From a virus (taxonomy: Duplodnaviria > Caudoviricetes): a stretch of DNA of 51,103 nucleotides. Each line of letters begins with the position of its first letter. Within the stretch, counting starts at the first letter, position 1. A program made the translations under genes and the position numbers. Shown here piece by piece: positions 6,490-50,111 of this stretch. The stretch is taken from positions 1-51,103 of the IMG/VR virus record IMGVR_UViG_3300007094_000015. One strand, given 5' to 3'. The notes below the pieces were generated by a model that was not told where the DNA came from, made no database searches, and saw only the letters and a program-made list of their open reading frames with translations.

Positions 6490-6576
6490 TCACTCTCCTA
6501 GATCACAACGACACACAACCCAACTCACGAAAGCGGCTAAAGCGAACGCCCCAGCCAGGAACCAAATAAAGGTCAC
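6490..6576 (-). CDS. 28-aa single-pass membrane microprotein
   Basis: GTG overlaps the csrA stop (GTGA). MTFIWFLAGAFALAAFVSWVVCRCDLGE fills the gap to the exonuclease gene exactly. Confidence 0.5.
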   Translation of the reverse strand: MTFIWFLAGAFALAAFVSWVVCRCDLGE

Positions 6577-6755
6577 GCGTCACCAGCCTTTCCGTCGCTG
6601 TAGATCTCGTCGTAGATCTCCTCGCGGTGGACTTCCAGGTCTTTCGGGGCGTCAATTCCGATCTTGACCTTGCCGCCCCTGACCTCAGTGACCGTGATGA
6701 CGATGTCGTGACCGATCCGAATGCGCTGATTCACTTGGCGCATGAGCACGAGCAT
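6573..6755 (-). CDS. csrA: Carbon storage regulator CsrA/RsmA (GGA-binding translational regulator)
   Basis: MLVLMR...IRIGHDIVITVTEVRGGKVKIGIDAPKDLEVHREEIY is the CsrA consensus, including the RNA-binding HREE Arg. SD AAAGGAG. Confidence 0.96.
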   Translation of the reverse strand: MLVLMRQVNQRIRIGHDIVITVTEVRGGKVKIGIDAPKDLEVHREEIYDEIYSDGKAGDA

Positions 6756-24268: not shown

Positions 24269-24479
24269 CGCGCAGTGTGCTTTCCGCCTCCTTTCGCTTC
24301 AGCGCCTTCTCCAGGTGCCGCGAAAAGAAGTCTTTGGGGTTTTGGACGGCGTAGGCCAGCAGGGCCACGGCTCCCGATGACGGCGGGTTTGCCACCAACG
24401 CAGCCTCGTCAGGCGTGCGAACACGCGGCAGTGTGTGGTAGACCCAAAGGATGTCGTCTTCTAGTGTGCTGTCATTCAT
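24036..24479 (-). CDS. Putative terminase small subunit or terminase-associated protein
   Basis: ATG 24479 overlaps the giant gene stop; helical/coiled-coil; directly upstream of and overlapping terL. Confidence 0.45.
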   Translation of the reverse strand: MNDSTLEDDILWVYHTLPRVRTPDEAALVANPPSSGAVALLAYAVQNPKDFFSRHLEKALKRKEAESTLRDDQRKFHDLFDQLDQQFAEERASQRQCPYCARPFGHTAVLQAGAKGSAGQRRVPSARAGHGDEEPGHPPAALEHEQP

Positions 24480-27400: not shown

Positions 27401-30400
27401 ATGCGGTTGAAAAACAGGCCAATGTCTGTTGCCAACTGGAGCGCTTTGGCGTCTTTGGCTTTTGTGCTAGTGATGTCGTCCCAGCCGGGCGCAATGATAG
27501 AGCGTCCTTCTCCGAACCCTGAATCTAACCGAGTACCTTCCGCGCGGCCAAGGACCTTGATCTTATAGCCAAACCGCTTCCCAAACCTATCGGCGACCCT
27601 CTGCACGGTCCCTTGCGTTGCAACTCCGGTATTGGTGTAGTACGCGTCACCGTCACCTTTTGCAGCTTGGTACTCAAGCCGCCCCGTAAACCACGAGTCT
27701 GGCGGATACGCGCCCTCAGAAAAGGTTTCAAAATCGGGTTCGTATCGCACAGTGGAAGCTCGGCGAACCTCCGCTTCTTCTTCAGTAAGCGGGTTAGCAA
27801 AGTCCTTGGCGTACTGCACGACAGACTCAATGCGTTCGGCAGCTGGCTTTGCAGAAAGGGCCTGTTGTGGTGTTTGCGAGTCAGCCGCAACACTCTCCTT
27901 GCCGTCGCTTGCAAACTCAAACAACATTGCGGCTAACTTCGCTGCGCGACGTTGCTTATTGCGAGTGGTATGTATAGAAACAGACCCCCCTTCAATCCAC
28001 GGGACGCCGCCGATAGCCACAGCTGAATACTCAGTGTTAAATTCCAAGCCGAGCAATATTGCACCAGTTTTCGAGACCTTTTCGTACTCCTCCTCGCTGG
28101 GCTCCGGTATTTTAACGACCCCAATGTTGTCGCCAAACATCTCCACCTCCAGCTCGCTGCGCCTGGGGAACATGTCATGCCCCATCGGACGCGGCAGCTC
28201 GCTCTGGCTCACCATGCGCACAACACCCTTTGGGCCGTGCTTGTCAATCAATGCGAGAATCTCTGCGTGGTTAACCTTCTGAGATTGAGATGATGCCTTT
28301 TTGCCACTTCCTGTGGTTTTCGTCACGCGACGCAAATCTTCAAGTAGCGCCGCAGTGTCCTCTGGTTTTTGAAGCGGTTCGTCAAACAGAAAAACCCTGT
28401 CCATCGCATTCGCAAGCTCGTCATTCGACTTGATGAGCGAAGTTTTGCCTTCGCTAAAATCCAATGTCTCCACGCTTCTTGGCACCACTGAGTCCCGGTA
28501 AACAATCAGCTTTCCACCTGCCGTCCTCGTCGGCCTGGACGCAGTGCCTGTACCCGCGACTGGTGCTGCAGGAGGTGCTGCAGGAGGTGCTGCAGGCGGA
28601 GCCTTTGCCTCCACCTTCTTGCCCTTCTTCTTCGGCGGGGCGGGTGGAGTGGACGGCTTTGCGGCGGCTTTGGCGGTTACAGCGGCATGAAGCGCTCGCA
28701 GTTGCCCAAGGCTGGACGCGTCACTGTACTTGCCTTCAGCCCATCGCCCAGCACTCGACAAGAGGCGAAAGGTGTCGGCGGGAAACTGATTTGGATCAGT
28801 TGTCGAGAAATCATCCAACAGCAAGGCGACCCTGACGAAGTCTAGAGCCTGAGGTTTTGTCGCAAACTCCTTCAAAGTCATCTGAAGCGGCATGGACTGG
28901 ACAAAATAACGGCCTTTTGGCTTCGAGGAAGTCCCTACATCCATTTTATAAATGGCCAGATTGCCGTACACAGTAGCGTCAACGGTATCACGCCACGGCT
29001 TTCCCGCGTCGTCCGTGCCTGTTCTTTCGATTTTCTGCCGCTTCCCGCTAGATGCGTTTGCATCAGCTGCAATTGCGATTCCCTGCCTTAGCTCTTCGAC
29101 TTCGGCTTGCTCCTTGCGATTTTTCTCGGCAGCCGCTTGCGCCTCCTCCTGCTGCTGCTTTTGCTTAAGCTCCCTATGCCTAACGTGCTCTAGCTTGTGC
29201 TCTACTGCGGCCTTGTTGTGCGCGTAATACGGATTTTCCTGCCAAGACAAGTCAAATTTTCCAACGTCCTTGTCATCGTCAAAGTCGCGATTGAACGTAA
29301 GGATGTCGCTGCCATCTTTGTCTTTGCTCGCGGTAAACACACCCCCGCCAGCAGTCAGTTCATCCTCCGGGCTGCGCACCACTGAGCCACGAACGTCACT
29401 GTCGTTGCCTTCACCCATCAACCACAGCTTATTGTCCACAAAGTAAGCAGCACGCCCTTGTTTCTGCGCTTGCTGCATTACAGCTTTCACAAGATCACTG
29501 GCCTCGGACTTTTCACCTATCGTGACGCCTTCCAGGCTTGGCGCGTCAGGCTGCTTCGCCTCGGGCTTCTTCTCTTCGGCAACCGGCTGCTTTTTAGGCG
29601 TTGCCATGGGTGACTTGGGATCGCCCATGCTGCCGATCCAAATTGGCGGCAGCTCGCCAATGGCGACGTACTTATCGCCTTCTCGCTTATACCGGCTTGG
29701 TATCTCAGGTGACTCGTACGCACTAACATAAGTCACGTCGAAAGGCGTAGTACTACTTCTTGGCTGCAGAGTAACGAAGACCTGCTGTTTTTTCCAAGCA
29801 CCTTCGCCACTTGAGGTCGACTTACTGGGTTTGAATGCTGATTTATAAAACAAGGTAAACGCGTCTTGCTGCCTCTCTTCATTGTATTCGTGAGTAACAG
29901 CGACCCCTGTCTCACGAAGACGTGATAGTTCCGCTTTGATAAAGTCTTTGCTTGCTGTTTTCCACTTGTTGCTTGAACTATCCCAGTATGGTTTTATGGA
30001 AGACAGAAATTGATCTACAGACAATTCTGGCTGCGAGGCTATTACACGTTGCTGCTTCTTGCCCTTGCTCTTCTCAGGCTTCGCCTTGGGCTCCACGACC
30101 GGCGTAGTGGAGGCCGGGGACGCCTTAACTGGCTTACTGGCGTCCTTCTTGGATTTAGCGTCCTTCCAAACGTACTGGTCGCCTTCGCGGACATATTCCT
30201 TAGGAAGATCTTTAGCAAATCCCCACTCGTCGACTCGGTCTGCTGGCAGCGGCAGTTTCTCCGCCGCTAGGTCATACAAATACCCCTCTGCAAGTCGCCT
30301 CTCTTCGGCAGATGAGCGTAAATTGCCAAGAGCGCTGCGACCCTGCTCCGTGAGCATCCCCTTGCGCTTGCCTTTGCCTTCCACGTCACCATTGGCCACT

Positions 30401-33400
30401 AATTCGGCTATCTGCTCGTCAGTCAAAGGCTCATAGCCGCGCCTAGCAGCTTTGTTTGAGATCGACCGAAGCCTGCGAAGACGCTCCGCATTATCCATTG
30501 CAGCAACCGGCTTCTTGCCCTTTTTAGGCACAGATTCAGCCTGAGGCTTGTTCGCGTCTTGCGCAGTTACCTTGCGAATCAGGTCTAGCGTGCCCTCGGT
30601 TGAGAAGTTCCTCGAACTAATTTCACCGGCTGTGTATCTTCCATACAGCGAGAAGTCTTTCTTCATTCTCTTTTTTATGTCAAGGAGCCACCCGTCACCG
30701 CCAACTGCGTTCTTAATGCCGATAATCAGCCGATGCACTGCCACGTCGTACACGCCGCCATAGTCACTTGCATCTTTGTCGCTAAGGAAAGCATTTGGCG
30801 GAAATGGTTTCTTTGCGTCATTGCGAGGCGTGCCGTCGCCTTCAAAATCAAACACAAGCGAAGCTACCTGCGCAATTCGTTCAGCCTCTTGGTAGTCGCC
30901 CGTACCTAAATGAATTCCGCGATTCAGGCCTTCCCCTAGTACGACAACATCATACATCGCCGTGCCAGGCTCCCTGATCACGGCCAAGTTGCTTCCGAAT
31001 ACAACTGCTTCAGCGAGGTCGAAAGTGTCAGCAGATGACTCGTATGACTCAATCCCCAAGGTGTTAAGATCAATCTCTTGCACCACTCCGGCTGGTGCGT
31101 ACTTCTCAACGATCTCCTTGATCTGGCTGCGCATCTCGTTCACTTGTTCGTAGGCAGCTTTGGCCCTGGCCATACCATCCGACAGCTTCTTGCCCTTCGA
31201 CTTGTCGGGCTTGGGCTTGGGCTTATCTTGCTTCTTGCCCTTGGACTTGGGCGGGTCCGGCTTCTTCGGTTCATCAGGCGGCGGCGTCGGAGTTGGCGTC
31301 GCAGGTGCCGGGGGCGGAGTCGGAGTCGGCGGAGTTCCTGGCGGAGGCGTGTCCGGGTCTGCTGGTGGATCGGTGGGTGGGTCGGTGGGCGGATCCTCTT
31401 CCCAGAACTTCTTGCCACCGCGATCAACCCACTCCTGCATGAACTCGTTGTTTACGAATTCGACGTGGCGTCCCGTACCTCCCTCGCGTTGCACGTCCTC
31501 CACGGCTTTTGCCAGTCCGTTGCCGAACGCAGTGGACATGGACGCGCCCTGATTCATGGCGTCCACGGCATCCTTGGCGTGCTTGGCTGCAATGTCCCGC
31601 AGGGCATTGATCGTGTCGGTGTCGAGCGGCTGGTCGGCGTCCGTCGGAGGCGTATCGGGCGTGGCAGCTACCGGCGCAGGGGCGACGGGAGGCGTCGGCG
31701 TTGCTGCGGCGGGCGGGGCGGCAGGCGGGACAGGAGGAGCAGGCGGAGGAGTGACTGGCGTCTGCTGCGGCGGGATGGGCTGCGCACCAACGCCCTTGCC
31801 ACTGGTCATGGCGACAGCCACCATCTCGCGCAAGTCGTCGTCTGTCAGTGACTTCAGCGCTTTAGTGCCCTTTTTAGGCAGCTTGATGCCAAACATGTCT
31901 GCCAGAGACAGTAGTCCATCACGGTCCTCGCCTTCGATCTGCTTGTATACCGCTTGGGCAGCATCAGACAGCGGCGGACGCTGTGGCGTGTCCTCCTCGA
32001 CTGGCGTTTGCGGCTGCACCGGCGCGGCGGGAGGCGGCACGGGCGTCTGCTGCACTGGAGGCTGTGGCTGAACCGGCGCTGGCTGCACTGGAGCCTGCGG
32101 CGGCTGCACTGGCGGTTGCTGAACCGGAGCCGGGGCGACTGGCCTGCTTCTGGCCGCCTCAGCCTCTCGCCTTGCCATCTCCTGCTTGATGATGTCCTGC
32201 TTGTTCTTTCCACCTTGTTTCCGTAGCCGATTACGCTTGTCACGGCGCAAACGCGTGTTACCGCCAAACAAGCGACGCAACTCAGAAGCGCTCATCCCCT
32301 GCATCTGCTCGTAGGTTAAAACATCGCGCTTCAGGCCCTTGTTAGGCTTGCCATAAGCTGGGTCAAGGTCTTGAATGCCGGGCTGCGCTGGAAGCCCGTA
32401 GCTTTCATCCAGCGGAGCGGTTTTGGGCTGGGCCGCTTGTGGCGAAACACCCGATTTAATCGCCCGGTCGATTGACTTGGCCTCTGCGACCCACTCGCTC
32501 ATGTTGGAACGAGCTTTTTTACCCCAGTAGTTGGCCAGCGTCGCCTGTGACGTGCCCAGGATATTGGCGAACTGCTTGCGCGACACATTGTGCGGCAACT
32601 TCGCCAATGCACTTGCGACTTCGGGGTACTCGTTCAGAAATGCTGTCGACGACCGATAGCCGGGCGTGCCGGATCGTTCGGCTTCCAGCGAACCCACCAA
32701 CGACTGCTCGCGCTTCGGACGGCGGCCAGGAATCGCGGTGCCTGTCTGGGACTCGTAAGCAGTAGGCGGCTCTTGTCTTGTGATGTTTGCGGATTTGGGC
32801 GACTGCTCCAGCTTGCTTGGCTGCGGCAATGGATTGTCTGCCGCGTACTGATCTGCCTCGGCTTGCAGCCTTGCCTCTTCCTCGCGATACGCGTTTTTGG
32901 CGCTGCGAGTCTTGGCCTGCTCAATCCGCTGCGGAACCTGCGAGGCCATGCTGATCGCACCGCCGCCAGCTCGCATTCCGGCCCACGCCAGGAACTCCAC
33001 GCCCAGCTGCTCAGCGGCTCGCTGACGAGCTGCGGCACGCGCTTCTGGCGTGTCGGCCGTGAATGACTCAATGGCCGCACCCGTCACGCCGTAGCCACCT
33101 TCACCCAAGGCTGCGCCCATGCCGATTTCAGCAACGCGCTCCTCAATAAGTTCGCCCAGCAGCCCGTGGACGCCCATCTTGCGCATGACTTCGTTCGCGC
33201 GCGTCGGGTTTAGTCCTGTGCTTCGCTTGACCGTCAGCGCGAGCCACTCACCAAGCCCCTTTTCGATGCCAGTCGGAGGAATGAAATTGCCGATCTGCTC
33301 GCTGGCGACGTTAATAAACTGCTCAACCGCAGCTTTAGCAGCGGCCGGTACTGCTGTCTCGTTGGGATCAGCAGCCAGGCGGTCGGCCGTGCCTTTGGCC

Positions 33401-34248
33401 ACGCGACCAACGCCAGTCCCGAATGTTGTCTTAAGGCTGGTTTTCAGGGCCGTCCCGGCCGTCTCCTTAACAGACTTCTTTGTGATTGACTCAATGGCTT
33501 CCGATATTGCCTTCTTGGCTGCCCACTTGCCACCTGTCTTGGCGGCTACCTGCGCACCACGCGACCCGAGAGACGTGCCCAACGAGGGCGCTGCAGCCAA
33601 CATCTCGACGCCCAGGGCCGGGGCCATGGTAATCACGTCTGCCGCCTGGCCCAGCATCGAACGATTCTCGTAGAACTTCTGGTCGTTCAGGTACTGGCCG
33701 ACAGTCAGGTAGTCCTCTGGACTAGCCTTTCCGTCCTGAATGCGCCGGGCAGCAAGAGCCACCGTCAATGGCTCGGCTGCGGAGGCAAAACCACCAACGA
33801 ATGGCACTCGCTCGGCCCAGTAGGTGGCGCTTGACGGAGCGTTGCCCGCTGTAGCCTGCTCAGCCAGCTGAAGACGCACGTCGGCGGGCGCTTGCGGATT
33901 CTGATAACTGTAGAGACGGCGCTGCAGCTCGCGGTGCTGATCCGACGTGGCCGTGCCCATGGCTCCGGTAATCTGCTCCTGCGTTACCGGCGCACCAGAT
34001 GCAAGCAGCTGCTGGGCAGAAACTGGCTGCGGGTATGCGTGTGGCTGGCTTTGCCAGTCAAACTGCGGTGCGTTTGGAAAATTCTTCTGCGTCAGCGGAG
34101 CATACGGCAGCATCGACCCGTCTGGCTTGGCAGCAGGCGCAGCTGCGCGCGAAGGAGCGAATGAAGCCGTGGCCTGCCGAATCTCCTCCTCAGTAGCATC
34201 GTCCGGGAAGCGAGCAACGCGGCCGTTGGGCAGGATTACGGTCTTCAT
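24472..34248 (-). CDS. Giant (3258 aa) internal virion/ejection protein, polyvalent-protein-like, with HExxH metallopeptidase motif
   Basis: Last of three ejection-type genes; Gly/Ala helical N-terminus; Pro/Lys-rich linkers; IVGHELAH; C-terminal region with NSLLSG..TH..N, D.FF, YSYARIEP and YDLWG motifs like podoviral gp16-type proteins. Confidence 0.75.
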   Translation of the reverse strand: MKTVILPNGRVARFPDDATEEEIRQATASFAPSRAAAPAAKPDGSMLPYAPLTQKNFPNAPQFDWQSQPHAYPQPVSAQQLLASGAPVTQEQITGAMGTATSDQHRELQRRLYSYQNPQAPADVRLQLAEQATAGNAPSSATYWAERVPFVGGFASAAEPLTVALAARRIQDGKASPEDYLTVGQYLNDQKFYENRSMLGQAADVITMAPALGVEMLAAAPSLGTSLGSRGAQVAAKTGGKWAAKKAISEAIESITKKSVKETAGTALKTSLKTTFGTGVGRVAKGTADRLAADPNETAVPAAAKAAVEQFINVASEQIGNFIPPTGIEKGLGEWLALTVKRSTGLNPTRANEVMRKMGVHGLLGELIEERVAEIGMGAALGEGGYGVTGAAIESFTADTPEARAAARQRAAEQLGVEFLAWAGMRAGGGAISMASQVPQRIEQAKTRSAKNAYREEEARLQAEADQYAADNPLPQPSKLEQSPKSANITRQEPPTAYESQTGTAIPGRRPKREQSLVGSLEAERSGTPGYRSSTAFLNEYPEVASALAKLPHNVSRKQFANILGTSQATLANYWGKKARSNMSEWVAEAKSIDRAIKSGVSPQAAQPKTAPLDESYGLPAQPGIQDLDPAYGKPNKGLKRDVLTYEQMQGMSASELRRLFGGNTRLRRDKRNRLRKQGGKNKQDIIKQEMARREAEAARSRPVAPAPVQQPPVQPPQAPVQPAPVQPQPPVQQTPVPPPAAPVQPQTPVEEDTPQRPPLSDAAQAVYKQIEGEDRDGLLSLADMFGIKLPKKGTKALKSLTDDDLREMVAVAMTSGKGVGAQPIPPQQTPVTPPPAPPVPPAAPPAAATPTPPVAPAPVAATPDTPPTDADQPLDTDTINALRDIAAKHAKDAVDAMNQGASMSTAFGNGLAKAVEDVQREGGTGRHVEFVNNEFMQEWVDRGGKKFWEEDPPTDPPTDPPADPDTPPPGTPPTPTPPPAPATPTPTPPPDEPKKPDPPKSKGKKQDKPKPKPDKSKGKKLSDGMARAKAAYEQVNEMRSQIKEIVEKYAPAGVVQEIDLNTLGIESYESSADTFDLAEAVVFGSNLAVIREPGTAMYDVVVLGEGLNRGIHLGTGDYQEAERIAQVASLVFDFEGDGTPRNDAKKPFPPNAFLSDKDASDYGGVYDVAVHRLIIGIKNAVGGDGWLLDIKKRMKKDFSLYGRYTAGEISSRNFSTEGTLDLIRKVTAQDANKPQAESVPKKGKKPVAAMDNAERLRRLRSISNKAARRGYEPLTDEQIAELVANGDVEGKGKRKGMLTEQGRSALGNLRSSAEERRLAEGYLYDLAAEKLPLPADRVDEWGFAKDLPKEYVREGDQYVWKDAKSKKDASKPVKASPASTTPVVEPKAKPEKSKGKKQQRVIASQPELSVDQFLSSIKPYWDSSSNKWKTASKDFIKAELSRLRETGVAVTHEYNEERQQDAFTLFYKSAFKPSKSTSSGEGAWKKQQVFVTLQPRSSTTPFDVTYVSAYESPEIPSRYKREGDKYVAIGELPPIWIGSMGDPKSPMATPKKQPVAEEKKPEAKQPDAPSLEGVTIGEKSEASDLVKAVMQQAQKQGRAAYFVDNKLWLMGEGNDSDVRGSVVRSPEDELTAGGGVFTASKDKDGSDILTFNRDFDDDKDVGKFDLSWQENPYYAHNKAAVEHKLEHVRHRELKQKQQQEEAQAAAEKNRKEQAEVEELRQGIAIAADANASSGKRQKIERTGTDDAGKPWRDTVDATVYGNLAIYKMDVGTSSKPKGRYFVQSMPLQMTLKEFATKPQALDFVRVALLLDDFSTTDPNQFPADTFRLLSSAGRWAEGKYSDASSLGQLRALHAAVTAKAAAKPSTPPAPPKKKGKKVEAKAPPAAPPAAPPAAPVAGTGTASRPTRTAGGKLIVYRDSVVPRSVETLDFSEGKTSLIKSNDELANAMDRVFLFDEPLQKPEDTAALLEDLRRVTKTTGSGKKASSQSQKVNHAEILALIDKHGPKGVVRMVSQSELPRPMGHDMFPRRSELEVEMFGDNIGVVKIPEPSEEEYEKVSKTGAILLGLEFNTEYSAVAIGGVPWIEGGSVSIHTTRNKQRRAAKLAAMLFEFASDGKESVAADSQTPQQALSAKPAAERIESVVQYAKDFANPLTEEEAEVRRASTVRYEPDFETFSEGAYPPDSWFTGRLEYQAAKGDGDAYYTNTGVATQGTVQRVADRFGKRFGYKIKVLGRAEGTRLDSGFGEGRSIIAPGWDDITSTKAKDAKALQLATDIGLFFNRMKMSGVGTLPVTVDFFASDRQGIGGFAYRNHVFLNRAILFNNTLDEVWGIVGHELAHAASIDRLHQLFGEDLVARFAKDYYEIAIPEYRKLLDKNPSLLYREGVARMVQEFMSSATFRDSLLKEKPTGWAWLVELISKLFGKNEGEWKYQSPEMQEAADTFRSLLTSPEFAKAAGISSYVQFQQSPLPGPRRRREEQERARVQRAFGRANPASTVAGRSQVYEQDIFSGLPENRPRSEAEAAAAARLAGDGLQKETQLFLERFRSGNFAPLPSEADYATLRGIIDNVTVSQAMGKDAKSLKDMSLLVNGWRQTRTELARSLSLRDPIARDPKTRLRRAIIHNVFEGTDSELVKKIVEALEKAGIDINSPDLEENLELVTKALGIILSEKKRHAKGKPAAFADMVYEFYLNSLLSGWKTHAANLAGNTFNLMWTNTVERMSEIAVSKLTRGKLSNDNEIRDMREMAEMFKAMGKAVGHAFNNSLTAFRSEYSPINLMTGHSDEFNNMMVPSYAMPGTIGKVVRTPGFRLLQMSDEFFRTIAAHGAAAIEAYRLGKQVGIKPEKMSDFVAGHVRDYSSPVWQAAMAEADLQTFQQEGGRTAKAAKKGVNSFKTIPGVRYMLPFSSFLINSFSRVSELTPGVGLVFSAINALSGENVNWNRAIGSQIVATALMAAVASMVDDEDENGLPRITGTKAVNSGRRGLQYMTAPPMSIRLWGSYYSYARIEPLNTMLSSAVDFAHEVKRGGNPIAAIPTSFLRQVDDKNYMQSIEDLLEIINSDQNMSGKAIDYAGSVAIGFVPNLYRQTKRELRNVVTDTGSKPGDTTQERIKRLMMKAELPGVGYAYRYDLWGKPMRTSSPQTSVIWRLLVPVQHKYISDVLPVSIAIRRWNEQMEAEGKDDDRISTELPRYPQIDGKPVSMKDYETYAREAGQYSYNALKDRKFPETMTPRHAKMIEDALKRGRKIALFRLKKRLAEKDE

Positions 34249-42706: not shown

Positions 42707-43297
42707 ATGGACGAACGCGTCTCCAAGAAGTCGACAGACCACAGACACTTCGGCCGCTGGCTGAGCGACGAGGAGTTGGAAGCCCTTAAACGCACCGAAC
42801 TCATCCTGCCCATCATGGCCTGCTGGCTGCCCATCCTCGCCCAGATGGCCAAGGACAAGGGCATGCCACGCACCAAGTTCATCCGCAGCCTAATGGAGAA
42901 AGCCGCCAGGCAGATGGGCTACCCGCTGCCCAAGGACCGCATCGGCTGGAAGCCCAAGCGAAAGAAGACCAAGGCCGAGAAGGCACGCCATCTCAAGAAA
43001 CTTCAGATGCGACGGTACAGGGCTCGGAAAAGAGAGGAGCTGGCACGGGATCCCGAGTGGTTCTGGTCGCCCGAAGGCTACGTCGGGACCGCCGACCTCG
43101 ACTCGCTCGGCACCACCGCAGGCATGGTCGACCATCTCGGCGTCTGGCATCCAGAGTCGCACCGCTACACGCCAGCCAGAATAGCCGCCGCGTGCCAGAA
43201 GGCGATGGACGAAGGCGAGCTGGATGGCGAACGATGGCAGCTTTTCGTGCGGAGATATGGGGGAGGGGGAGGAGAAGTGGGTGCAGATTCCGAATAG
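42707..43297 (+). CDS. Putative DNA-binding regulator (ribbon-helix-helix-like + basic helix)
   Basis: SD GGAGG before ATG 42707; LAQMAKDKGMPRTKFIRSLMEKA resembles RHH helices; Lys/Arg-rich segment; divergent from the late promoter. Confidence 0.5.
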   Translation: MDERVSKKSTDHRHFGRWLSDEELEALKRTELILPIMACWLPILAQMAKDKGMPRTKFIRSLMEKAARQMGYPLPKDRIGWKPKRKKTKAEKARHLKKLQMRRYRARKREELARDPEWFWSPEGYVGTADLDSLGTTAGMVDHLGVWHPESHRYTPARIAAACQKAMDEGELDGERWQLFVRRYGGGGGEVGADSE

Positions 43298-43299
43298 CT

Positions 43300-43720
43300 A
43301 CCACGCAGGGATCTCGCGGCGCGGGCGCGGGGGTTCGGTAAAGTCTTGGTCGGCCTTGGGTCCCTCCGGGTCCCCCCCTGCCCTGCCCTGCCACTATCCA
43401 CCTGGTCCGCACCGTGCCGATGGCCGCCGTGCTGGCCGTGATGGGCCACGCTGGCCCCGCTGCATGGCCACTATGCACGGGCAGGACGGCGGATCGGCGT
43501 CCGGCCGAAGCCAAACCCGAAGCCACGGCCACGGCATCGGCGACGCGGTGACGCGGTGACGCGGTCGGCGACGCGGGCGACGTGAGCCAGGTGCACCGAC
43601 GGCGTCGGCCTGCCCGCGACGCGGTGAAGGTCGGCCGCGGCCGACGCGTTGCATGCCCGCGCGGGCGACGCCGCCCGCCCCCCACGCCCCCCGATGAGCT
43701 GTCAGCATGACGCGGCGAAT
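43300..43720. repeat. Very GC-rich non-coding region with GACGCGG, GCCACG and CCCTG short repeats (candidate packaging/terminus region)
   Basis: gacgcggt gacgcggt gacgcggt cggc gacgcgg at ~43541-43577, more copies at ~43618 and ~43709; ccctg x3 at ~43376-43390; no credible ORF. Confidence 0.55.
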
Positions 43721-43736
43721 TTCTGGCCCTGCCCGA

Positions 43737-43765
43737 TTGACAAATCCGATATTACTCGATACCGT
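43737..43765 (+). promoter_or_regulatory. Strong sigma70-type early promoter
   Basis: TTGACA-N17-TACCGT about 70 nt upstream of the first early gene. Confidence 0.7.
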
Positions 43766-43834
43766 GGCCGGTCCACGGCCAACGCGTGTTGGTTGTGGTG
43801 TTGATTGAGTGTTGATGATTCTGGAGGCATGGAC

Positions 43835-44383
43835 ATGAAATTCGAGTCGATCGGCGAAACTACAACCGTGACAACGGCCAACACCGCGCACTTGGCGCTT
43901 CAGCTGGCCAAACTTCCGCCCGGACGATATACGATTAAGTGGGCCATGGAAGGGTATGAAAGCACGACCGCTTTCGGCGTCACGGTCCTGCCAGTTGATG
44001 AGGCCGGTGACATGGCCGCGTTGCTGGCCGACGTGACGGAGCGTATCGACCTTGCAACCGGTCGTTTGCTGTCTCGCCTTGTGGCTGACTACCCGCCATT
44101 TACGCGAGACTTGACGCAACAGCTGACCGACGCGGTGACATGGGGCCAGTGGTTGCATTCTCGCCATTTGGCCGCGGGCGCTTATTGGTGCCTGGGGCGC
44201 GACATTGACGCCATTCTGGATTGCGTCTCGGAGGCACAGAGCTGGCAGCCGGAACAATGGCTTGTCGCGTTGGCCGCGATGCGAGCTCCACGGTGCACGT
44301 GTTGCGGTGACGTGCCGCGTTGGGTGAATGAAGCGGCGTATATGTCGCGCGTCTGCCTTGCCATTCTCCCGATCGGCGATTAG
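43835..44383 (+). CDS. Early hypothetical protein
   Basis: ATG 43835 is 7 nt after GATTCTGGAGG. Confidence 0.65.
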   Translation: MKFESIGETTTVTTANTAHLALQLAKLPPGRYTIKWAMEGYESTTAFGVTVLPVDEAGDMAALLADVTERIDLATGRLLSRLVADYPPFTRDLTQQLTDAVTWGQWLHSRHLAAGAYWCLGRDIDAILDCVSEAQSWQPEQWLVALAAMRAPRCTCCGDVPRWVNEAAYMSRVCLAILPIGD

Positions 44384-44492
44384 TGGCCGCCTGCCTGCCC
44401 GAACCTGATAGCTGGCCAGCGGTGACACGCTGGCCAGCTCGATGGCCCGGGCAGTCGACGCGGTCGACGCGGGGAAGTCTAGATTCTGGAGG
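44384..44492 (+). ncRNA. Intergenic structured element, copy 1 (long hairpin + CTAGATTCTGGAGG box)
   Basis: CTGCCCG/CGGGCAG stem, AA/CC loop, CC/GG, UGAU/CGAU loop, 12-bp stem AGCTGGCCAGCG/CGCTGGCCAGCT. Confidence 0.7.
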
Positions 44493-44500
44493 TCGAGACA

Positions 44501-45253
44501 ATGCGAGAGAATGCAAACGGCGTCGTGCTATGGGAAGGTCGGTCGCTTATCGACGGGCAGGCGGTCGTGGTCGTGGCCACGTTCCATTCTGAGAACCGGA
44601 AAACGGGCGACATGATCCAGACTTTCATCTTGCTGGCCGATACCCCGCCGGTCGACGCGGCTGCCACCGGGGCCGACGTGGCTATTTGCGGCGCGTGCCC
44701 GTTGCGTGGGATTATGATGGACGGGCGGAACCGCGACCGCGCTTGTTACGTGAATCTCGGGCAGTCGCCCGCCAGCGTCTGGGAATGCTGGGATCGGGGC
44801 GGATATCCGGCATACAATCCGGCCCGGCACCGTCGGCTATTCCTGGGGCGTTCGTTGCGGATCGGCGCGTATGGCGACGCGACGGCTACACCGTATGGTG
44901 CCTGGGAGTCGGTGTTACGCGCCGTGCGGAAGCGCCGGACGGGATATACGCACCAGTGGCGGACCTGCGACCAGCGATGGCGGGCTAAGCTGATGGCCAG
45001 CGTGGAAACGGTGCTGGGGAAAATCGAGGCCAATACCATGGGCTGGAGGACGTTCCGGACGAAGTTAGCCGGGGACCAGCGTCTGCCTGGAGAAAAGGGA
45101 TGCCCGGCCTCGATTGAGGAAGGCCAGCGGAAAACGTGCGACGGGTGCTTATGGTGTAGCGGCGCCGAATACGGGCGCGGTGATATCGTCATCGACGCCC
45201 ACGGCACCCGGGGGAAGGTGGCTGCATTCCGCCGGATGTTGTACCGCGACTAG
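44501..45253 (+). CDS. Conserved phage early protein with Cys clusters (Fe-S / radical-SAM-like, inferred)
   Basis: NRKTG, ICGACP...CY, LRIGAYGD, GYTHQW, MASVE, CPA...CDGCLWC. Confidence 0.6.
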   Translation: MRENANGVVLWEGRSLIDGQAVVVVATFHSENRKTGDMIQTFILLADTPPVDAAATGADVAICGACPLRGIMMDGRNRDRACYVNLGQSPASVWECWDRGGYPAYNPARHRRLFLGRSLRIGAYGDATATPYGAWESVLRAVRKRRTGYTHQWRTCDQRWRAKLMASVETVLGKIEANTMGWRTFRTKLAGDQRLPGEKGCPASIEEGQRKTCDGCLWCSGAEYGRGDIVIDAHGTRGKVAAFRRMLYRD

Positions 45254-45363
45254 TGGCCGCCTGCCTGCCCGAACCGGACGCCCTGCCTGGAGCAATCTCG
45301 GCGGGGCCGACGGCCCGGGCAGTCGACGCGGTCGACGCGGGAAGTAAAGTCTAGATTCTGGAG
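45254..45363 (+). ncRNA. Intergenic structured element, copy 2
   Basis: Flanks identical to copy 1 (25 nt on the 5' side including the TAG stop, ~30 nt on the 3' side) around a different inner stem GCCCTGCC/GGCGGGGC. Confidence 0.7.
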
Positions 45364-45372
45364 AGCGGGACA

Positions 45373-46056
45373 ATGCAAATTGAGATTGCGTCGGGGAAAG
45401 CGCTTGCGAACATGGTGGACACGGGCCATCGACGGTATGCCATGGGCAACGTGGCCGTGACGCCCACGGATGATAAGCGCGTCGCGCTGGCGGCCACAAA
45501 CGGCATGGTGTTGGGAGTCGCGCTCGCGGCGACCGACGGCGACGCGCCAGCGGAAGGGAAGTGGGCGGCCGCGTTCGACGCCGACAACCTGCCCACGGGC
45601 CGGTCCACGTTGTTGGTTAGCCCGCTTGGCGTGGCGGCCATCGGCCCGAAGCGCGGGGGATCGCAGCCACGGACCGACCTCACGGCGGAAATGGGGCGCA
45701 TGCCCGACCTGCCCTGTGTGGTGCCGGACACGGTCGACGGTTACCGCGTGCTGGTGCTCGACGCTACGCTGTTGGCCGCGCTGGCGGCGATGATCAACAC
45801 GCGGGAGAATACCGGCGTGCGCATCTTGTGGAAGGACGCCGATGAGGCCGTCATGGTGCTGCCCCAGTCCGGTGAAGGTGGGTTTGGCGTGCTCATGCCG
45901 CGCACCAGCGACCAGCGGTCGGACGCGGCCGACCGATTAAGTTGGCGTGAAATGGTGGCCGCCTGGAAGGCCGGATACGATCGCGACATGGTGCACGGTG
46001 CCACCACGGCGGGCGACGGCGTGCCGTTCGCGTCCGAAGATCGCGCCACGATCTAA
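45373..46056 (+). CDS. DNA sliding-clamp (DnaN)-like protein, truncated/two-domain
   Basis: RRYAMGNV, LAATNG..L, GRMPD...VVP, LDATLL..L and GVLMP parallel the R..L.GV, ATDG.RL, G.FP....V.P, N...L and LMP motifs of beta clamps. Confidence 0.65.
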   Translation: MQIEIASGKALANMVDTGHRRYAMGNVAVTPTDDKRVALAATNGMVLGVALAATDGDAPAEGKWAAAFDADNLPTGRSTLLVSPLGVAAIGPKRGGSQPRTDLTAEMGRMPDLPCVVPDTVDGYRVLVLDATLLAALAAMINTRENTGVRILWKDADEAVMVLPQSGEGGFGVLMPRTSDQRSDAADRLSWREMVAAWKAGYDRDMVHGATTAGDGVPFASEDRATI

Positions 46057-46172
46057 TTGGCGACGTGTAGCGTGAACCTGAGGCCGTCGGGACTGGAGGA
46101 CCGGCGGCCGACGGCCCGCGCTGCTGGCGTCGTGCTGGCGGATGGCGGAATTCTGGTCCTAGATTCTGGAGG
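46057..46172 (+). ncRNA. Intergenic structured element, copy 3 (diverged, covarying)
   Basis: GTAGCGTG/CGCGCTGC stem, AA/CC, CC/GG, tandem GA, GGCCGTCGG/CCGGCGGCC stem with GACTGGAGGA loop; ends in CTAGATTCTGGAGG. Confidence 0.65.
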
Positions 46173-46180
46173 GTTCGATC

Positions 46181-46486
46181 GTGGTAGCGTACGCAAAATT
46201 GGCACCTGGAGTGCTGGCGGTGTACAGAAGAGCGCTGGCGAAGCGCTATTGGCAGCTGGCGGTACAGTTCAGCGACGCGCCGGATATGGTGACGGGAGCA
46301 GCGCTGGCGGACGCGGCGTTGCCGTTGTTGGCGGAGCTGGTCGCGGCGGGCAGGATGACGCCCGAAGAGCACGCGGACGTGCTGGAGTCGGTGTTGCGCG
46401 CGGTCGCGCACGCGGCCGATGCGGAGTGGGAGTTTGACGACCCGATCTGGCACGAAGTCGTGCTGGCCGGGTGGTTCGCGGTTTAG
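46181..46486 (+). CDS. Early hypothetical protein (helical, acidic)
   Basis: GTG 8 nt after the CTAGATTCTGGAGG box. Confidence 0.65.
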   Translation: MVAYAKLAPGVLAVYRRALAKRYWQLAVQFSDAPDMVTGAALADAALPLLAELVAAGRMTPEEHADVLESVLRAVAHAADAEWEFDDPIWHEVVLAGWFAV

Positions 46487-46517
46487 TTTTTCTGGTACTA
46501 GATTCTGGAGGTGGACA

Positions 46518-46796
46518 ATGGCAGCGAAAGTAAGGTGGCGCGTGTATCGCGCGCCTGAGGGTAGTGGGCTGAGCTACTGCGGCGAATTCGAGGAACTCAC
46601 CGACGCGCACGCGTGCGCGCAGGGTAATCCGTTTGGCCAGCACGAATCGCTATGGGATACGCTCCGTGCGGCTGGGGACGCGTTCCGGTTTCATGCCCCT
46701 CGACCCGATGGCGTCGAGGCCGACGAAGTGGAGGCCTGGTACGGCGAGCACTGCGTGGTCCGCGTGACGTACCGGGAGGACAAGGATGCCCAGTGA
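46518..46796 (+). CDS. Early hypothetical protein
   Basis: ATG 46518 (MAAKVRW...) is 6 nt after the CTAGATTCTGGAGG box. Confidence 0.7.
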   Translation: MAAKVRWRVYRAPEGSGLSYCGEFEELTDAHACAQGNPFGQHESLWDTLRAAGDAFRFHAPRPDGVEADEVEAWYGEHCVVRVTYREDKDAQ

Positions 46797-46989
46797 CGCG
46801 CAAGTGAACGCCTGGATTATTCGCGTCCTCGCGGGGCGCGACGATCCGCATAGGCTGGTGGCTTATCTGTGCTGGCATGAAAAAGCTAGCAAGGAGCAAG
46901 TGTGGCAGCGGTTCGTGCGCGCCGCGCCGAAGACAACCAAGGAGCAATTCGATCGCGTGTGGAAGGACGCGCGGTTGCCGGTGCTGTAG
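46786..46989 (+). CDS. Early hypothetical protein
   Basis: SD GGAGG, overlaps the upstream stop, followed by a terminator. Confidence 0.65.
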   Translation: MPSDAQVNAWIIRVLAGRDDPHRLVAYLCWHEKASKEQVWQRFVRAAPKTTKEQFDRVWKDARLPVL

Positions 46990-46992
46990 ACG

Positions 46993-47034
46993 GGCTCGGG
47001 GCGGGGGTGTATGCTCCCGCCCCGGCCTTTTTTT
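46993..47034 (+). terminator. Rho-independent terminator ending the early operon
   Basis: CGGGGCGGGGGT-GTAT-GCTCCCGCCCCG stem followed by T7. Confidence 0.85.
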
Positions 47035-47057
47035 GTGACTTATTTCAAGGCTAGAAC

Positions 47058-47267
47058 ATGATCCCAACGCTGATAAGACTGACGCCCGAGTGTTACAAGG
47101 TTCTCGTCGCGCTCGCGGACGACCTGGGGCAGCCCGCCGCGCGTGTGGTGGAGGACTGCCTGTGGAACTCGCCACGCTTCCGGGCGTTCGCGGAAAAGCA
47201 CAAAGTGGTCAGACCGCAGCGCAAGCGGCCTGGCCGCCCGCCTAGTGGCGGATCCGAACCGTTGTAG
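47058..47267 (+). CDS. Small ribbon-helix-helix-like DNA-binding protein with AT-hook-like tail
   Basis: TLIRLTPECYKVLVALADDLGQPAARVVEDCL (beta-alpha-alpha), then KRPGRPP. Confidence 0.6.
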   Translation: MIPTLIRLTPECYKVLVALADDLGQPAARVVEDCLWNSPRFRAFAEKHKVVRPQRKRPGRPPSGGSEPL

Positions 47268-47553: not shown

Positions 47554-48447
47554 TCATTTCTGTATCAGGTTTGCTTGGAGGGCGTTTTCTCGGCGCTCCT
47601 CCGACGGACGCGGGGCGGTGCAATCGGACCGACCGATTGCGGTGGTGTACTTGGCAGCCACCATCTGGTCGAACGCGGAGGGCTTGATTAAGGCCCATCC
47701 ATCGCGGCCCCAGGATCGGGACCAGCTGTTCTTAAGTAGAAGGCCGTAGCCTTCTTTCCATGCTTTGACCTGCAGGTATCCACAGATCAGGACGGCGTGG
47801 CCACCACGGCGAGCGGGCTTGTAGGTTTTGATCTCCCAGCCATCAGACAGCGACACGTTCCAGTCGAGGCCGATCTGCACAGCACCTGAGAATGATCCAA
47901 TGAACGCCAGCGCTTCGTCGGCGGAATAGACGCCCACTGACGACCTGCACTGGTACAGAGGGCCAGCCAGGACTCTGTCGCGGTCCTCGCGGTAAGCTGC
48001 GAGCTGCTCGCGGTAGGATGAGCGATAGCCGAAGATGGATTCGTCAGGCAGGCCGCGCTGGGCTGCCCAAGTGCCGCCGTTGAGGGTGGAGCCGTTATCT
48101 GAGCCTAGCAATCCGTCCTTCTCTTGGCTGGAGAGATAGGCAAACGAACGAGACAGCTGCACCTCCTCCCCGGTTCCGATCAGGTGCGCAAACTCGACAG
48201 CGTCAGCCAGCGAGTTGCCTTGGCAAGATCCAATGCGCCCTTGGTCATGGATGTCAAACCAGGAACGCGGATCCACCTCGCGGGGCGGCTCCCAGTCGTA
48301 GTTGCGGTAGGCGCGAACCCACAACTCAGCGCCAGCGCGGAGGCCGGGGGCCATCTCGTCGCGCGGTTCCAGCTCAATCCGATAGCCGGTAAAGAACGGC
48401 GCAAGATCTGGGCTCAAATGGGCTAGTTCGGGCTCGTATCCAGTCAC
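47554..48447 (-). CDS. Papain-family (C1) cysteine peptidase
   Basis: DQGRIGSCQG (oxyanion Gln, catalytic Cys), GGHAV (His), KNSWSRSWGRDG (Asn). GTG 48447 overlaps the upstream stop. Confidence 0.9.
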   Translation of the reverse strand: MTGYEPELAHLSPDLAPFFTGYRIELEPRDEMAPGLRAGAELWVRAYRNYDWEPPREVDPRSWFDIHDQGRIGSCQGNSLADAVEFAHLIGTGEEVQLSRSFAYLSSQEKDGLLGSDNGSTLNGGTWAAQRGLPDESIFGYRSSYREQLAAYREDRDRVLAGPLYQCRSSVGVYSADEALAFIGSFSGAVQIGLDWNVSLSDGWEIKTYKPARRGGHAVLICGYLQVKAWKEGYGLLLKNSWSRSWGRDGWALIKPSAFDQMVAAKYTTAIGRSDCTAPRPSEERRENALQANLIQK

Positions 48448-49148
48448 TCGGCTGCTTTCCCCAGTGCTAGAGAAACCTCCAGATAGATCGACTTGCGCGC
48501 GACGAGGCCGGTGCCATACTTGGCGTTGGCGGCAGCGACCGCAGCGGACACGGGGGGCAGCCACTCGGATCGCCAGCGAGGCGACAGGGAGTCGATCACC
48601 GCGTCTAGCTTGGCCTTAACGTCGGCTGGCAGGCGGCCAGTGTGCAGGTCGTTCGCGGCTTCACTGAATGCCGTTGAGAGTTGGCGACACTCGTCCGCGA
48701 GGGCCAATTTCCGGGCGTTTTCGTACGCTGGAAGCCCCACGCCGTACGAGTTTTGCACGCTGGGGGTAGGGTCTGGAGGCGGAATTGGGGGTCCGGGAGG
48801 CGGTTCTGGAGGCCTCGGAGGCACGATTGGACCGGGTTTTGATGGGTCCACGATCTCCACGAACAGCTGCTGTTGGCTGGCCGGACCGAACACCAAAATC
48901 GCGTAGCGACCCGGCGGGCCAACGAAGACTAGGCCAGACGCCACCGGCTCGATTTCCACCGGGGTGAACCCCTCGCCGAAGATGAAGGCCCGCTCTTCAG
49001 GGGCCAGGCGCACGCGGACCAGACGGTCGCGCTCGACGCGTTGAGGGGCGTCGGCGGCAGAGCAAAAAGCGGCCGGGATGGTGGCCAACGCTAGATTCTG
49101 GAGGAACAGAACGGAGAACAGCCATCCCGGCCGCGTGATAGTATACAT
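48444..49148 (-). CDS. Exported/membrane-anchored protein with Pro-rich linker and helical C-domain
   Basis: Hydrophobic N-terminus, GPPGRY beta domain, PPRPPEPPPGPPIPPPDP linker. Confidence 0.7.
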   Translation of the reverse strand: MYTITRPGWLFSVLFLQNLALATIPAAFCSAADAPQRVERDRLVRVRLAPEERAFIFGEGFTPVEIEPVASGLVFVGPPGRYAILVFGPASQQQLFVEIVDPSKPGPIVPPRPPEPPPGPPIPPPDPTPSVQNSYGVGLPAYENARKLALADECRQLSTAFSEAANDLHTGRLPADVKAKLDAVIDSLSPRWRSEWLPPVSAAVAAANAKYGTGLVARKSIYLEVSLALGKAAE

Positions 49149-49543: not shown

Positions 49544-49895
49544 AGCGGTCAAGCTCCTTCTGTATATCAGAGCTTGATGGGGGGTAGTTGATTTCGTCAA
49601 GCCTTCTATTTGCGGCGACGCACCACGCTCCATCCATGCACTGGTTGTCGAAGAAGGGATCGTGGTACGGAATCGCGGGCAGCTGCTGGGGCTGGCGTTG
49701 TGGCTGGTCGATCCCCACCCAGGCCATCGTGCCGGGAGTCGGCTCGATCAGGATCTGATGCGCCGAAACCAGGACTGGAATTGGCTTGTGACAGTGGGTG
49801 CAATGCGGTATCTGGGAATGATCCAGCCAGCGAAAACAGCTTCCGCACGCAACGCAAGGGGCAACACCGCAACCAGCCGCAACCGTGTAAGTCAT
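49440..49895 (-). CDS. Possible Zn-finger protein
   Basis: CVACGS..RW......HCTHCH; overlaps the origin repeats and the downstream gene, so uncertain. Confidence 0.3.
   Translation of the reverse strand: MTYTVAAGCGVAPCVACGSCFRWLDHSQIPHCTHCHKPIPVLVSAHQILIEPTPGTMAWVGIDQPQRQPQQLPAIPYHDPFFDNQCMDGAWCVAANRRLDEINYPPSSSDIQKELDRYERRDTPPDRSPRPERATYRLLPAFGSEVCESNF
49571..49604 (-). promoter_or_regulatory. Putative late promoter (AGGCTTGACGAAA element) of the peptidase cassette
   Basis: 13-bp identity with 42624-42636; weak -10 candidate (CAAGCT at N18). Confidence 0.55.
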
Positions 49896-50108
49896 TGTTT
49901 ATAAACACCTTATGAGCGCGGTTGCTGGTTGCGGCTGGAGGGCGAACACACACACACAAACGCACCTACCCTAATACCTAAATACAAAACACACCTCTCT
50001 TCTCTCTCTCTCTAAATATCAGCAACCCCGCAACTCTCCTCCTAATGCTCTGATATATAAGGACTTGCGCGGTTGCGGTTTGGTTGCGGTTGCCGCAACC
50101 GCAGCAAC
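49848..50108. repeat. Putative replication origin with GCAAC(C)/GGTTGC iterons
   Basis: More than 10 GCAAC(C) copies in two convergent arrays, each around an AT-rich core, separated by CA and CT dinucleotide runs; just downstream of the primase-helicase. Confidence 0.7.
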
Positions 50109-50111
50109 GGG

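Follow-up and report, generated by a model that had tools for sequence, protein, structure and literature searches.

In the early region of phage T7, several paralogous RNase III hairpins (R0.3-R1.3, for example R1.1) lie in the spacers of one polycistronic mRNA. Each is a helix of about two turns with an internal loop, placed between a stop codon and the next ribosome-binding site. Another arrangement is known from the Cluster K mycobacteriophages, in which the start-associated repeat named SAS, an asymmetric repeat of 13-14 nt that includes the Shine-Dalgarno (SD) sequence, stands a few bases before the starts of some non-structural genes (PMC3203893). Its consensus is GGGATAGGAGCCC, allowing at most two mismatches, 3-9 bp before the start codon (PMC12699233, PMC3203893). 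Nearly all copies have one orientation, with a single odd copy on the other strand, and in about half of the cases an imperfect inverted repeat with arms of about 15-17 nt and a variable middle stands ahead of the copy; in the extended form, ESAS, imperfect inverted repeats of 17 bp are 4-14 bp apart (PMC3203893). Pope et al. state that the ESAS arms depart from symmetry in ways that give no support to RNA pairing (PMC3203893). A later paper places a SigA-like promoter in ESAS (PMC11373665), and papers of 2024-2025 still call the function of SAS and ESAS unclear (PMC11373665, PMC12699233). Here we analyse IMGVR_UViG_3300007094_000015, a complete virus record of 51,103 bases (the whole stretch is hereafter called the window), in which three plus-strand hairpins, the copies of hairpin A, lie between genes of one operon and are each followed by an extended SD box, CTAGATTCTGGAGG. 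We found that these hairpins are a real RNA structure, uncatalogued, whose pairing is under selection. Among the systems described so far, SAS/ESAS is the closest in architecture, and the T7 early RNase III sites would be the closest functional analogue.

Three intergenic hairpins share one architecture

All three hairpins have one layout, which runs from an outer helix (P1) through an A-A/C-C loop, a 2-bp helix and a 4x4 loop of the form NGAN/NGAY to a second helix (P2). P1 has 7-8 bp, and P2 has 8-12 bp with an unrelated sequence in each copy. In the middle of the 4x4 loop, G-A lies opposite A-G. A hairpin is roughly 58 nt long, with 21 Watson-Crick or G-U pairs and 6 stacked non-canonical positions, and 13-20 positions separate its two internal loops from the apical loop above. 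The arms of the inverted repeat are 26-30 nt apart, and the stretch between them is itself a covarying helix. The copies, and the parts of copy 1, are as follows.

44395..44454, plus strand: hairpin A copy 1 (covariance model R1, 78.1 bits; 12-bp P2, loop GUGACA)
44395-44401/44448-44454, plus strand: P1 of copy 1, CUGCCCG/CGGGCAG
AA 44402-03 and CC 44446-47, plus strand: AA/CC loop of copy 1
44404-05/44444-45, plus strand: 2-bp helix of copy 1, CC/GG
44406-09/44440-43, plus strand: GA loop of copy 1, UGAU/CGAU
44410-21/44428-39, plus strand: P2 of copy 1
45265..45322, plus strand: hairpin A copy 2 (R1, 71.8 bits; P1 as in copy 1, core GGAC/CGAC, unrelated P2, GCAA loop)
46067..46124, plus strand: hairpin A copy 3 (R1, 61 bits over 46068-46123; P1 GUAGCGUG/CGCGCUGC, core UGAG/CGAC)

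The initial annotation of this stretch had read a common fold into the three intergenic regions, with a P2 that differs in sequence and still pairs in each copy. Re-reading of the sequences and single-sequence folding of each region on the plus strand gave the same architecture (z-scores -4.0, -1.6 and -2.1), and both the folds and the alignment described below agree on a paired P2 of different sequence in every copy. In copy 3, P2 is shorter and has an apical CUGGAGG. The proposed position between a stop codon and an SD box also held, with P1 beginning 11-13 nt past the stop codon and GGAGG standing 6-8 nt before the start codon.

A covariance model (R1) was then run against the window with filters off and on both strands, the copies' own reverse strands being set aside. 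It found only the three copies, at 78, 72 and 61 bits, and the next unrelated place scored 16.7 bits. The core pattern GAACCNGA-N20-50-CGAYGGCC likewise occurred three times, against 0.01 expected. When the P2 sequences were compared with the rest of the genome, no meaningful matches and no sign of a guide function were seen.

Base pairing is kept in a related contig

For the third gene of the operon (gene 3), the metagenome collection contains one relative, with 92% protein identity, on contig L253 (3975 nt). The DNA of L253 is about 84% identical over 44182-46174, and all three hairpins and boxes are present in it. An alignment of six sequences (A3) was made from the window copies (W1-W3) and the L253 copies (L1-L3). 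The proposed structure pairs 97.5% of its 122 cells, and both sides have changed in 10 of the 21 pairs. None of 500 shuffles equalled the alignment in percentage paired, in number of both-side changes or in covariation score, and sliding the partners by 1-3 columns reduced pairing to 24-47%. RNAalifold recovered the same helices from the alignment unaided.

Because paralogous palindromes can mimic covariation, we also compared the orthologues only (W1/L1, W2/L2 and W3/L3). They differ by 17 substitutions in 15 stem pairs; 12 of these pairs stay paired, three gain pairing and none is lost. When 17 substitutions were placed randomly in the stems, 9.8 pairs were broken on average, and runs without a break numbered 0 in 100,000 at a transition share of 0.6 and 2 in 100,000 at 0.8. 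The initial annotation had claimed covariation from three paralogues; since an orthologous set was found, the case is now much stronger than those three copies would allow. Identity between window and L253 is 88%, 81% and 86% for hairpins 1-3 and roughly 84% for the flanking genes, indicating that the stems drift at about the background rate while their pairs are kept.

The orthologues also differ by indels of -2, +1 and -4 nt, which rule out a coding constraint on either strand. Stop-codon read-through or a coding extension was rejected on these indels and on the lack of conserved frames. In a third relative, a partial contig over copy 3, there are 2-nt insertions on both strands of P2; this relative is known only via differences in the contigs of run X1, where 44384-44497 and 45182-45295 are uncovered and count as neutral. 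A look-up of RNA sequencing runs gave none that contains this phage. Within the window itself, copy 3 keeps the eight bases of its internal loops, although it differs from copies 1 and 2 in three of seven P1 pairs and along the whole of P2.

The plus strand folds

On the plus strand, the stems contain 0, 2 and 3 G-U pairs in W1-W3 and 3, 4 and 3 in L1-L3. Over all stems of the six sequences there are thus 15 G-U and no A-C, which indicates that the plus (mRNA) strand is the one that folds and agrees with the earlier remark that several G-U pairs work on this strand only. On the minus strand, the 15 G-U pairs become mismatches and the invariant AA/CC loop reads as two G-U pairs. The folding energy was better for the plus strand in five of the six cases and equal in the remaining one.

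These results bear on whether the element acts at the level of DNA, as an operator or promoter of the ESAS/SAS kind, an attC-type recombination site or a single-stranded DNA hairpin signal. We consider this very unlikely. The stem changes pass through G-U intermediates that can form on only one strand. These wobble pairs, the variable spacing of the arms (26-30 bp) and a 'spacer' that is itself a covarying helix all argue against a duplex-DNA binding site. None of the three intergenic regions held a sigma-70-like promoter in a promoter scan. In favour of a DNA-level element, the box recurs at 49091..49104, antisense within a gene, where a role in RNA is difficult to picture, and the 8-mer GACGCGGK occurs 23 times against 7.9 expected, with a cluster in and upstream of the operon. 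There is also the parallel with SAS and ESAS, in which the inverted repeat is regarded as protein-bound DNA and, for ESAS, as promoter-bearing (PMC3203893, PMC11373665).

We set the locus beside SAS/ESAS. Both have an asymmetric start-associated box that includes the SD sequence and keeps one orientation except for a single odd copy, and in both an inverted repeat precedes some of the boxes. The box sequences differ, GGGATAGGAGCCC there and CTAGATTCTGGAGG here; ours falls outside the SAS consensus, and only the position is alike. The arms are 4-14 bp apart in ESAS, whereas here they are separated by 26-30 nt and the middle is a helix. What sets our hairpins apart decisively is that pairing is retained or gained in every one of the 15 changed pairs. 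The scan also found no promoter-like hexamers here. In presenting the locus as the best candidate for an undescribed system, the initial annotation went too far in two respects: the combination of a gene with an inverted repeat and an extended start box had been reported for the Cluster K mycobacteriophages as SAS/ESAS (PMC3203893), and the element has been seen only in this phage and very close relatives.

Two DNA-based candidates were rejected. Integron attC sites are characterised by the core sites R''/R' (RYYYAAC ... GTTRRRY), by folding of the bottom strand and by IntI. In our locus these core sites are absent, no GTT follows the 3' arm, the coding strand folds and the integrase has ordinary phage-integrase domains. 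N4-type DNA hairpin promoters were discarded as well, the hairpins being on the coding strand and the 3258-aa open reading frame (ORF) of the phage having no Pfam match.

Fixed loops, variable stems and the flanking elements

None of the eight loop bases (AA, CC, GA and GA) differs between the six sequences. Variation is seen at the four neighbours of the G-A pairs (alignment columns 29, 32, 63 and 66), where U-U, U-C, G-C, C-C and G-U occur and pyrimidines prevail among the mismatches. The short helix between the two loops, first given as CC/GG, does pair but is not invariant: its inner pair is C-G in four sequences, U-A in one and G-C in one, and between window and L253 the C-G of copy 2 has become U-A and that of copy 3 has become G-C. 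The CGAY element that had been noted was confirmed except for its first C, which is U in one copy.

Fixed loops might also be inherited by duplication. If the hairpins were passive spacers that serve as a 3' stabiliser, a block to Rho loading or a translational insulator, their loops would be alike through duplication and gene conversion. Copies 1 and 2 do share identical flanks, of 27 nt on the 5' side and 34 nt on the 3' side, and the same C-to-U change is found in both of these copies in L253, which fits concerted evolution. The spacers (117, 119 and 124 nt) have 67-70% G+C, so that structure is expected there, and a possible remnant of a collapsed module lies at 43599-43630. We nevertheless regard a passive role as distinctly doubtful. 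Copy 3 keeps the eight bases in spite of its diverged P1 and P2, the positions adjoining the fixed bases do vary, and the mismatched loops weaken the hairpin, which makes their retention unexpected in a pure stabiliser.

The elements around hairpin A were less constant. An outer stem GGCCGC/GCGGUC, part of the initial annotation, is lost in L253 and thus not conserved. Copies 1 and 2 have a conserved alternative, consisting of a closing stem CCUGC/GCGGG around hairpin A and a second hairpin, hairpin B, of the form GUCGAC-GCG-GUCGAC.

44454..44473, plus strand: hairpin B and the GCGGG 3' half of the closing stem, copy 1 (5' half CCUGC at 44390-44394)
45322..45341, plus strand: hairpin B and the 3' half of the closing stem, copy 2 (5' half at 45260-45264)

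Hairpin B was predicted in four of four copy-1 and copy-2 sequences from the window and L253. It stays a predicted fold, its bases being invariant and covariation silent about it. The same bases can also be read as two tandem GACGCGGK units. Ten plus-strand copies of this 8-mer cluster at 43542-45341; five of them are in the spacer upstream of the operon and four are the tandem GTCGACGCGG units after hairpins 1 and 2. The units after the hairpins are present in L253 too, at 657-673 and 1526-1542. Judged from its sequence, the cluster may be an iteron-like protein site, which would explain the full conservation of that flank in L253.

On the other side, the 5' arm of P1 lies within a (CCTG)n microsatellite (44384-44401; L253 587-603 and 1458-1472), with two units in the window copies and four and three in L253. 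A variable number of repeat units at the 5' arm would suit captured host palindromes of the repetitive extragenic palindrome (REP) type, without a phage-specific role, as would the position of these imperfect palindromes after stop codons in intercistronic spacers. GTAG is a hallmark of REP elements, and P1 of copy 3 starts with it. Such an origin is extremely unlikely in our view, given that R1 found no further copy elsewhere in the 51-kb phage and that the orthologous positions are kept in L253.

A candidate site for RNase III-type processing

RNase III substrates span about two helical turns, for which coaxially stacked short helices suffice, according to the parts of one source that deal with substrate structure (PMC1540722). 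Internal loops are described there as limiting cleavage to one strand, which leaves a protective 3' hairpin, and a bulge-helix-bulge motif as allowing binding without cleavage (PMC1540722). Hairpin A has the form of a T7-type site, that is, an intercistronic hairpin of two helical turns (at least 20 bp, stacking allowed), and the copies are placed between cistrons in an operon that ends in a canonical terminator. By analogy, it is quite possible, if short of probable, that hairpin A is an RNase III-type processing or binding site that splits the message into single-gene units as in T7. We rank RNase III first because the geometry (about two turns, with the loops about one turn below the apex), the placement and the known consequences fit.

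Under this proposal, the fixed loop-helix-loop module in a quasi-continuous helix of about 27-30 bp would be the site for a factor that reads RNA shape. The likeliest factor would be a host double-strand-specific endoribonuclease of the RNase III type, which might bind or cut once in the loop. P2 would need only to be a stable helix of about one turn, leaving its sequence free to vary. As with T7 early mRNA, the long message would be divided into single-gene units. The upstream unit would end in a hairpin that blocks 3' exonucleases, and the downstream unit would start at UCUAGAUUCUGGAGG, the sole AU-rich single-stranded stretch of the spacer, and carry the ribosome-binding site. The box could be a second cut site besides its role as ribosome-binding site; its AG/AUU resembles the preference of RNase E.

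Several observations weigh against RNase III-type processing. RNase III in the species studied needs no specific loop sequence, so the eight fixed bases point equally or more to a protein that reads sequence. The hairpins show no sequence similarity to the T7 sites and no Rfam match, and they differ from them in having two loops 2 bp apart with eight fixed bases, whereas E. coli RNase III has no positive sequence signal. Cleavage of hairpin A is a predicted event, proposed by analogy, and no RNase III gene was found in the phage. The junction of genes 4 and 5 has a box but no hairpin, which means that a hairpin is not required at every junction. In addition, the 3' flank of copies 1 and 2 may be a separate, possibly DNA-level signal, and gene conversion may have made the flanks of these two copies alike. 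Members of the family were seen in this phage, in L253 and in one partial contig only.

The fixed bases would also suit an operator bound by an RNA-binding protein, of phage or host origin, that reads sequence and could control translation or decay of the neighbouring cistrons without any need to cut. Such a protein would act as a repressor or activator, like those of the coat-protein, RegA, ribosomal-protein or N-boxB operators. We give this a minor though appreciable chance. Eight loop bases fixed in 6/6 sequences while the stems drift are the usual signature of protein-recognised RNA, and tandem G-A pairs often serve proteins as a platform. A long Lys/Arg-rich stretch is encoded by the gene just ahead of the operon (42707-43297), CsrA is encoded by the phage, and paired GGA motifs 12-18 nt apart (GGGAAG ... 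CUGGAGG) were seen by eye between each hairpin and its start codon. On the other hand, Pfam, PHROGs and NCBIfam detected no RNA-binding domain in the operon proteins or in 26 other ORFs.

CsrA/RsmA sites combine a GGA in a hairpin loop with a GGA in the SD sequence. Our locus resembles them in having a GGA in the SD of every box, a second GGA 12-18 nt upstream, and CUGGAG in the apical region of copies 2 and 3. It differs in that neither the conserved hairpin core nor the loop of copy 1 contains GGA, and the GGA of copy 2 is paired under a GCAA tetraloop. The presence of GGA near the apex in copies 2 and 3 only, with none in the core, speaks against a CsrA-type operator. Of the tie to a phage CsrA suggested by the initial annotation, the gene was recovered, at 6573-6755 on the minus strand, but the link is circumstantial, and the protein is a candidate binder of the GGA-containing box.

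We tentatively consider a further idea, less likely than plain RNase III-type processing, that the fixed module (A-A/C-C loop, two covarying pairs, Y-Y, G-A, A-G) is the signal of a dedicated RNA-binding protein or nuclease. Together with the start box it would then form an RNA 'punctuation' system, with one cut/protect/translate unit per gene. If true, this would be the RNA counterpart of the unexplained SAS/ESAS repeats and the first such system in phages of Planctomycetota-like hosts, and the start-associated repeats of other phages, long without an explanation, would gain a model based on RNA. Were a nuclease or protein to read the core, this would reveal the way in which a phage from a little-studied host group splits and adjusts its polycistronic message. 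Being small and clearly delimited, the recognition core lends itself to mutation, probing and pull-down experiments. For now, the reach is limited to two genomes and one partial contig of one lineage.

Other RNA elements were compared and rejected. Kink-turns have a 3-nt bulge followed by tandem G-A/A-G pairs that directly abut the C helix. Like kink-turns and motifs of the selenocysteine insertion sequence (SECIS) type, hairpin A has tandem sheared-type G-A/A-G pairs flanked by U-U/U-C mismatches beside a short C-G helix. Unlike them, it has no 3-nt bulge on either strand and its 4x4 loop is symmetric; an N-Y position also stands between the G-A pairs and the 2-bp helix, on both strands and in both orientations. 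As to SECIS, the upstream genes here have no in-frame UGA. A gene of the L7Ae family was not seen, though no search was aimed at one. Intrinsic terminators were dismissed because none of 11 terminator-like sites is at a hairpin and the bases after the hairpins, GUCGACGCGG, contain no U run. Antitermination of the HK022 put type would require another position, the hairpins being inside the operon.

The extended start box

The box CTAGATTCTGGAGG is an extended SD sequence that follows each hairpin and ends 6-8 nt before the start codon. With up to two mismatches allowed, it has eight matches in the window against 0.17 expected, five of them on the plus strand with 0-1 mismatch. The other genes of the phage have an ordinary SD sequence without the CTAGATTCT prefix.

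43817..43827, plus strand: partial box GATTCTGGAGG before the first gene (ATG 43829)
44479..44492, plus strand: box CTAGATTCTGGAGG, 8 nt before ATG 44501
45351..45364, plus strand: box with one mismatch, CTAGATTCTGGAGA, before ATG 45373
46159..46172, plus strand: box before GTG 46181
46498..46511, plus strand: box without hairpin before ATG 46518 (gene 4/5 junction, 31-nt spacer)
49091..49104, plus strand: sixth exact box, antisense in ORF 48444-49148 (minus strand), with no start codon after it

The copy at 49091..49104 lies within the signal-peptide-like N-terminus of ORF 48444-49148 and is hard to explain as a ribosome-binding site. In the third relative, TTTAGATTCTGGAGG stands in place of the partial box GATTCTGGAGG (contigs of run X1). 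A promoter in the box was rejected, since TAGATT is only 3 nt from the SD.

Distribution of the element

Rfam 15 gave 0 matches over the whole window on both strands at gathering thresholds. Over 43700-47100, a search up to E=10 gave two chance-level matches only, Chloroflexi-1 at 17.6 bits (threshold 80) and mir-214 at 16.4 bits (threshold 66.7); the proposal that this is not a known Rfam family was therefore borne out. Hammerhead, hairpin and other ribozymes were rejected on the negative Rfam result and on a core that is unlike theirs by eye.

No further members were found in about 1.7 Mb of viral loci and 20 related phage records. In IMG/VR, the exact box was present in 94 stretches, all of them single matches, and on these 788,648 bases R1 had no match better than one at E=0.65. 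The pattern GAACCNGA-N20-50-CGAYGGCCCG was found in at least 118 stretches; we checked 100 matches among those listed, of which 12 came from the window itself, while among the other 88 none was paired in both P1 and P2. For GCCCG-N25-55-TAGATYCTGGAG there were 68 loci with 0 R1 matches. The 34 loci around relatives of gene 2 (at most 47% identity) contained no real R1 match, and a 22-bit match in locus L101 was rejected as an unrelated tandem palindrome. This palindromic unit of about 47 nt, tandemly duplicated at 6290-6400 (minus strand) of an unrelated phage and about 600 nt from its gene-2 homologue, belongs to a different repeat family. The 20 whole records of terminase relatives gave one partial-helix match only (E=0.03). 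Neither the tail protein nor gene 3 had relatives in IMG/VR; among genome contigs, gene 3 had no match and gene 2 matched only a Methylovulum prophage, at 40% identity. Among the isolated phages of INPHARED, searched in distant mode, there was one irrelevant match of 102 nt. As far as these searches reach, the element is confined to one lineage.

The phage and its operon

The phage is temperate, with its replication genes at the left end of the genome. Other landmarks are listed below.

6573-6755, minus strand: CsrA homologue (PF02599, 80.9 bits), adjoining the integrase
7057-8328, minus strand: tyrosine integrase with ordinary phage-integrase domains
22361-24268, minus strand: terminase

The nearest clusters of integrase look-alikes are mostly from Planctomycetota. 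A Planctomycetota host is only a lead, suggested by these look-alikes only. A giant ORF of 3258 aa (24472-34248, minus strand) lies among the structural genes. The operon that holds the hairpins is composed as follows.

43738..43798, plus strand: possible transcript start (TTGACA at 43738, seen by eye with a weak -10; stem-loop 43773-43798)
43829-44383, plus strand: gene 1
44501-45253, plus strand: gene 2 (phrog_2554, a family without assigned function)
45373-46056, plus strand: gene 3
46181-46486, plus strand: gene 4
46518-46796, plus strand: gene 5
46786-46989, plus strand: gene 6
46996..47035, plus strand: intrinsic terminator at the operon end (13-bp stem at 46996-47025, then a T run)

Only gene 2 had a family match. 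The other five genes are orphans, and the term 'early' for this row of genes is therefore an assumption. The TTGACA at 43738 was not among the sites of the promoter scan, and the stem-loop at 43773-43798 is a weaker terminator-like site. The terminator at 46996..47035 is kept in L253. In L253, another small gene (2794-3060), which matches nothing in the window, stands between genes 5 and 6; the distal operon thus varies in gene content.

Upstream of the operon, the Lys/Arg-rich stretch of the gene at 42707-43297 (plus strand) reads KPKRKKTKAEKARHLKKLQMRRYRARKREE; the gene has no family match, and its product could, speculatively, be a nucleic-acid binder. Between this gene and the operon, 43298-43828 is a G+C-rich stretch of 530 nt with no convincing gene, which holds (CCCTG)3 and GACGCGGT repeats. 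Within it, the apparent collapsed hairpin module at 43599-43630 has a 5' arm joined to the 3' flank. Near the right end of the window, the intergenic region 49890-50110 contains CA and CT simple repeats together with several repeats of the GGTTGCGG type, and from this composition it may be an origin or a regulatory region.

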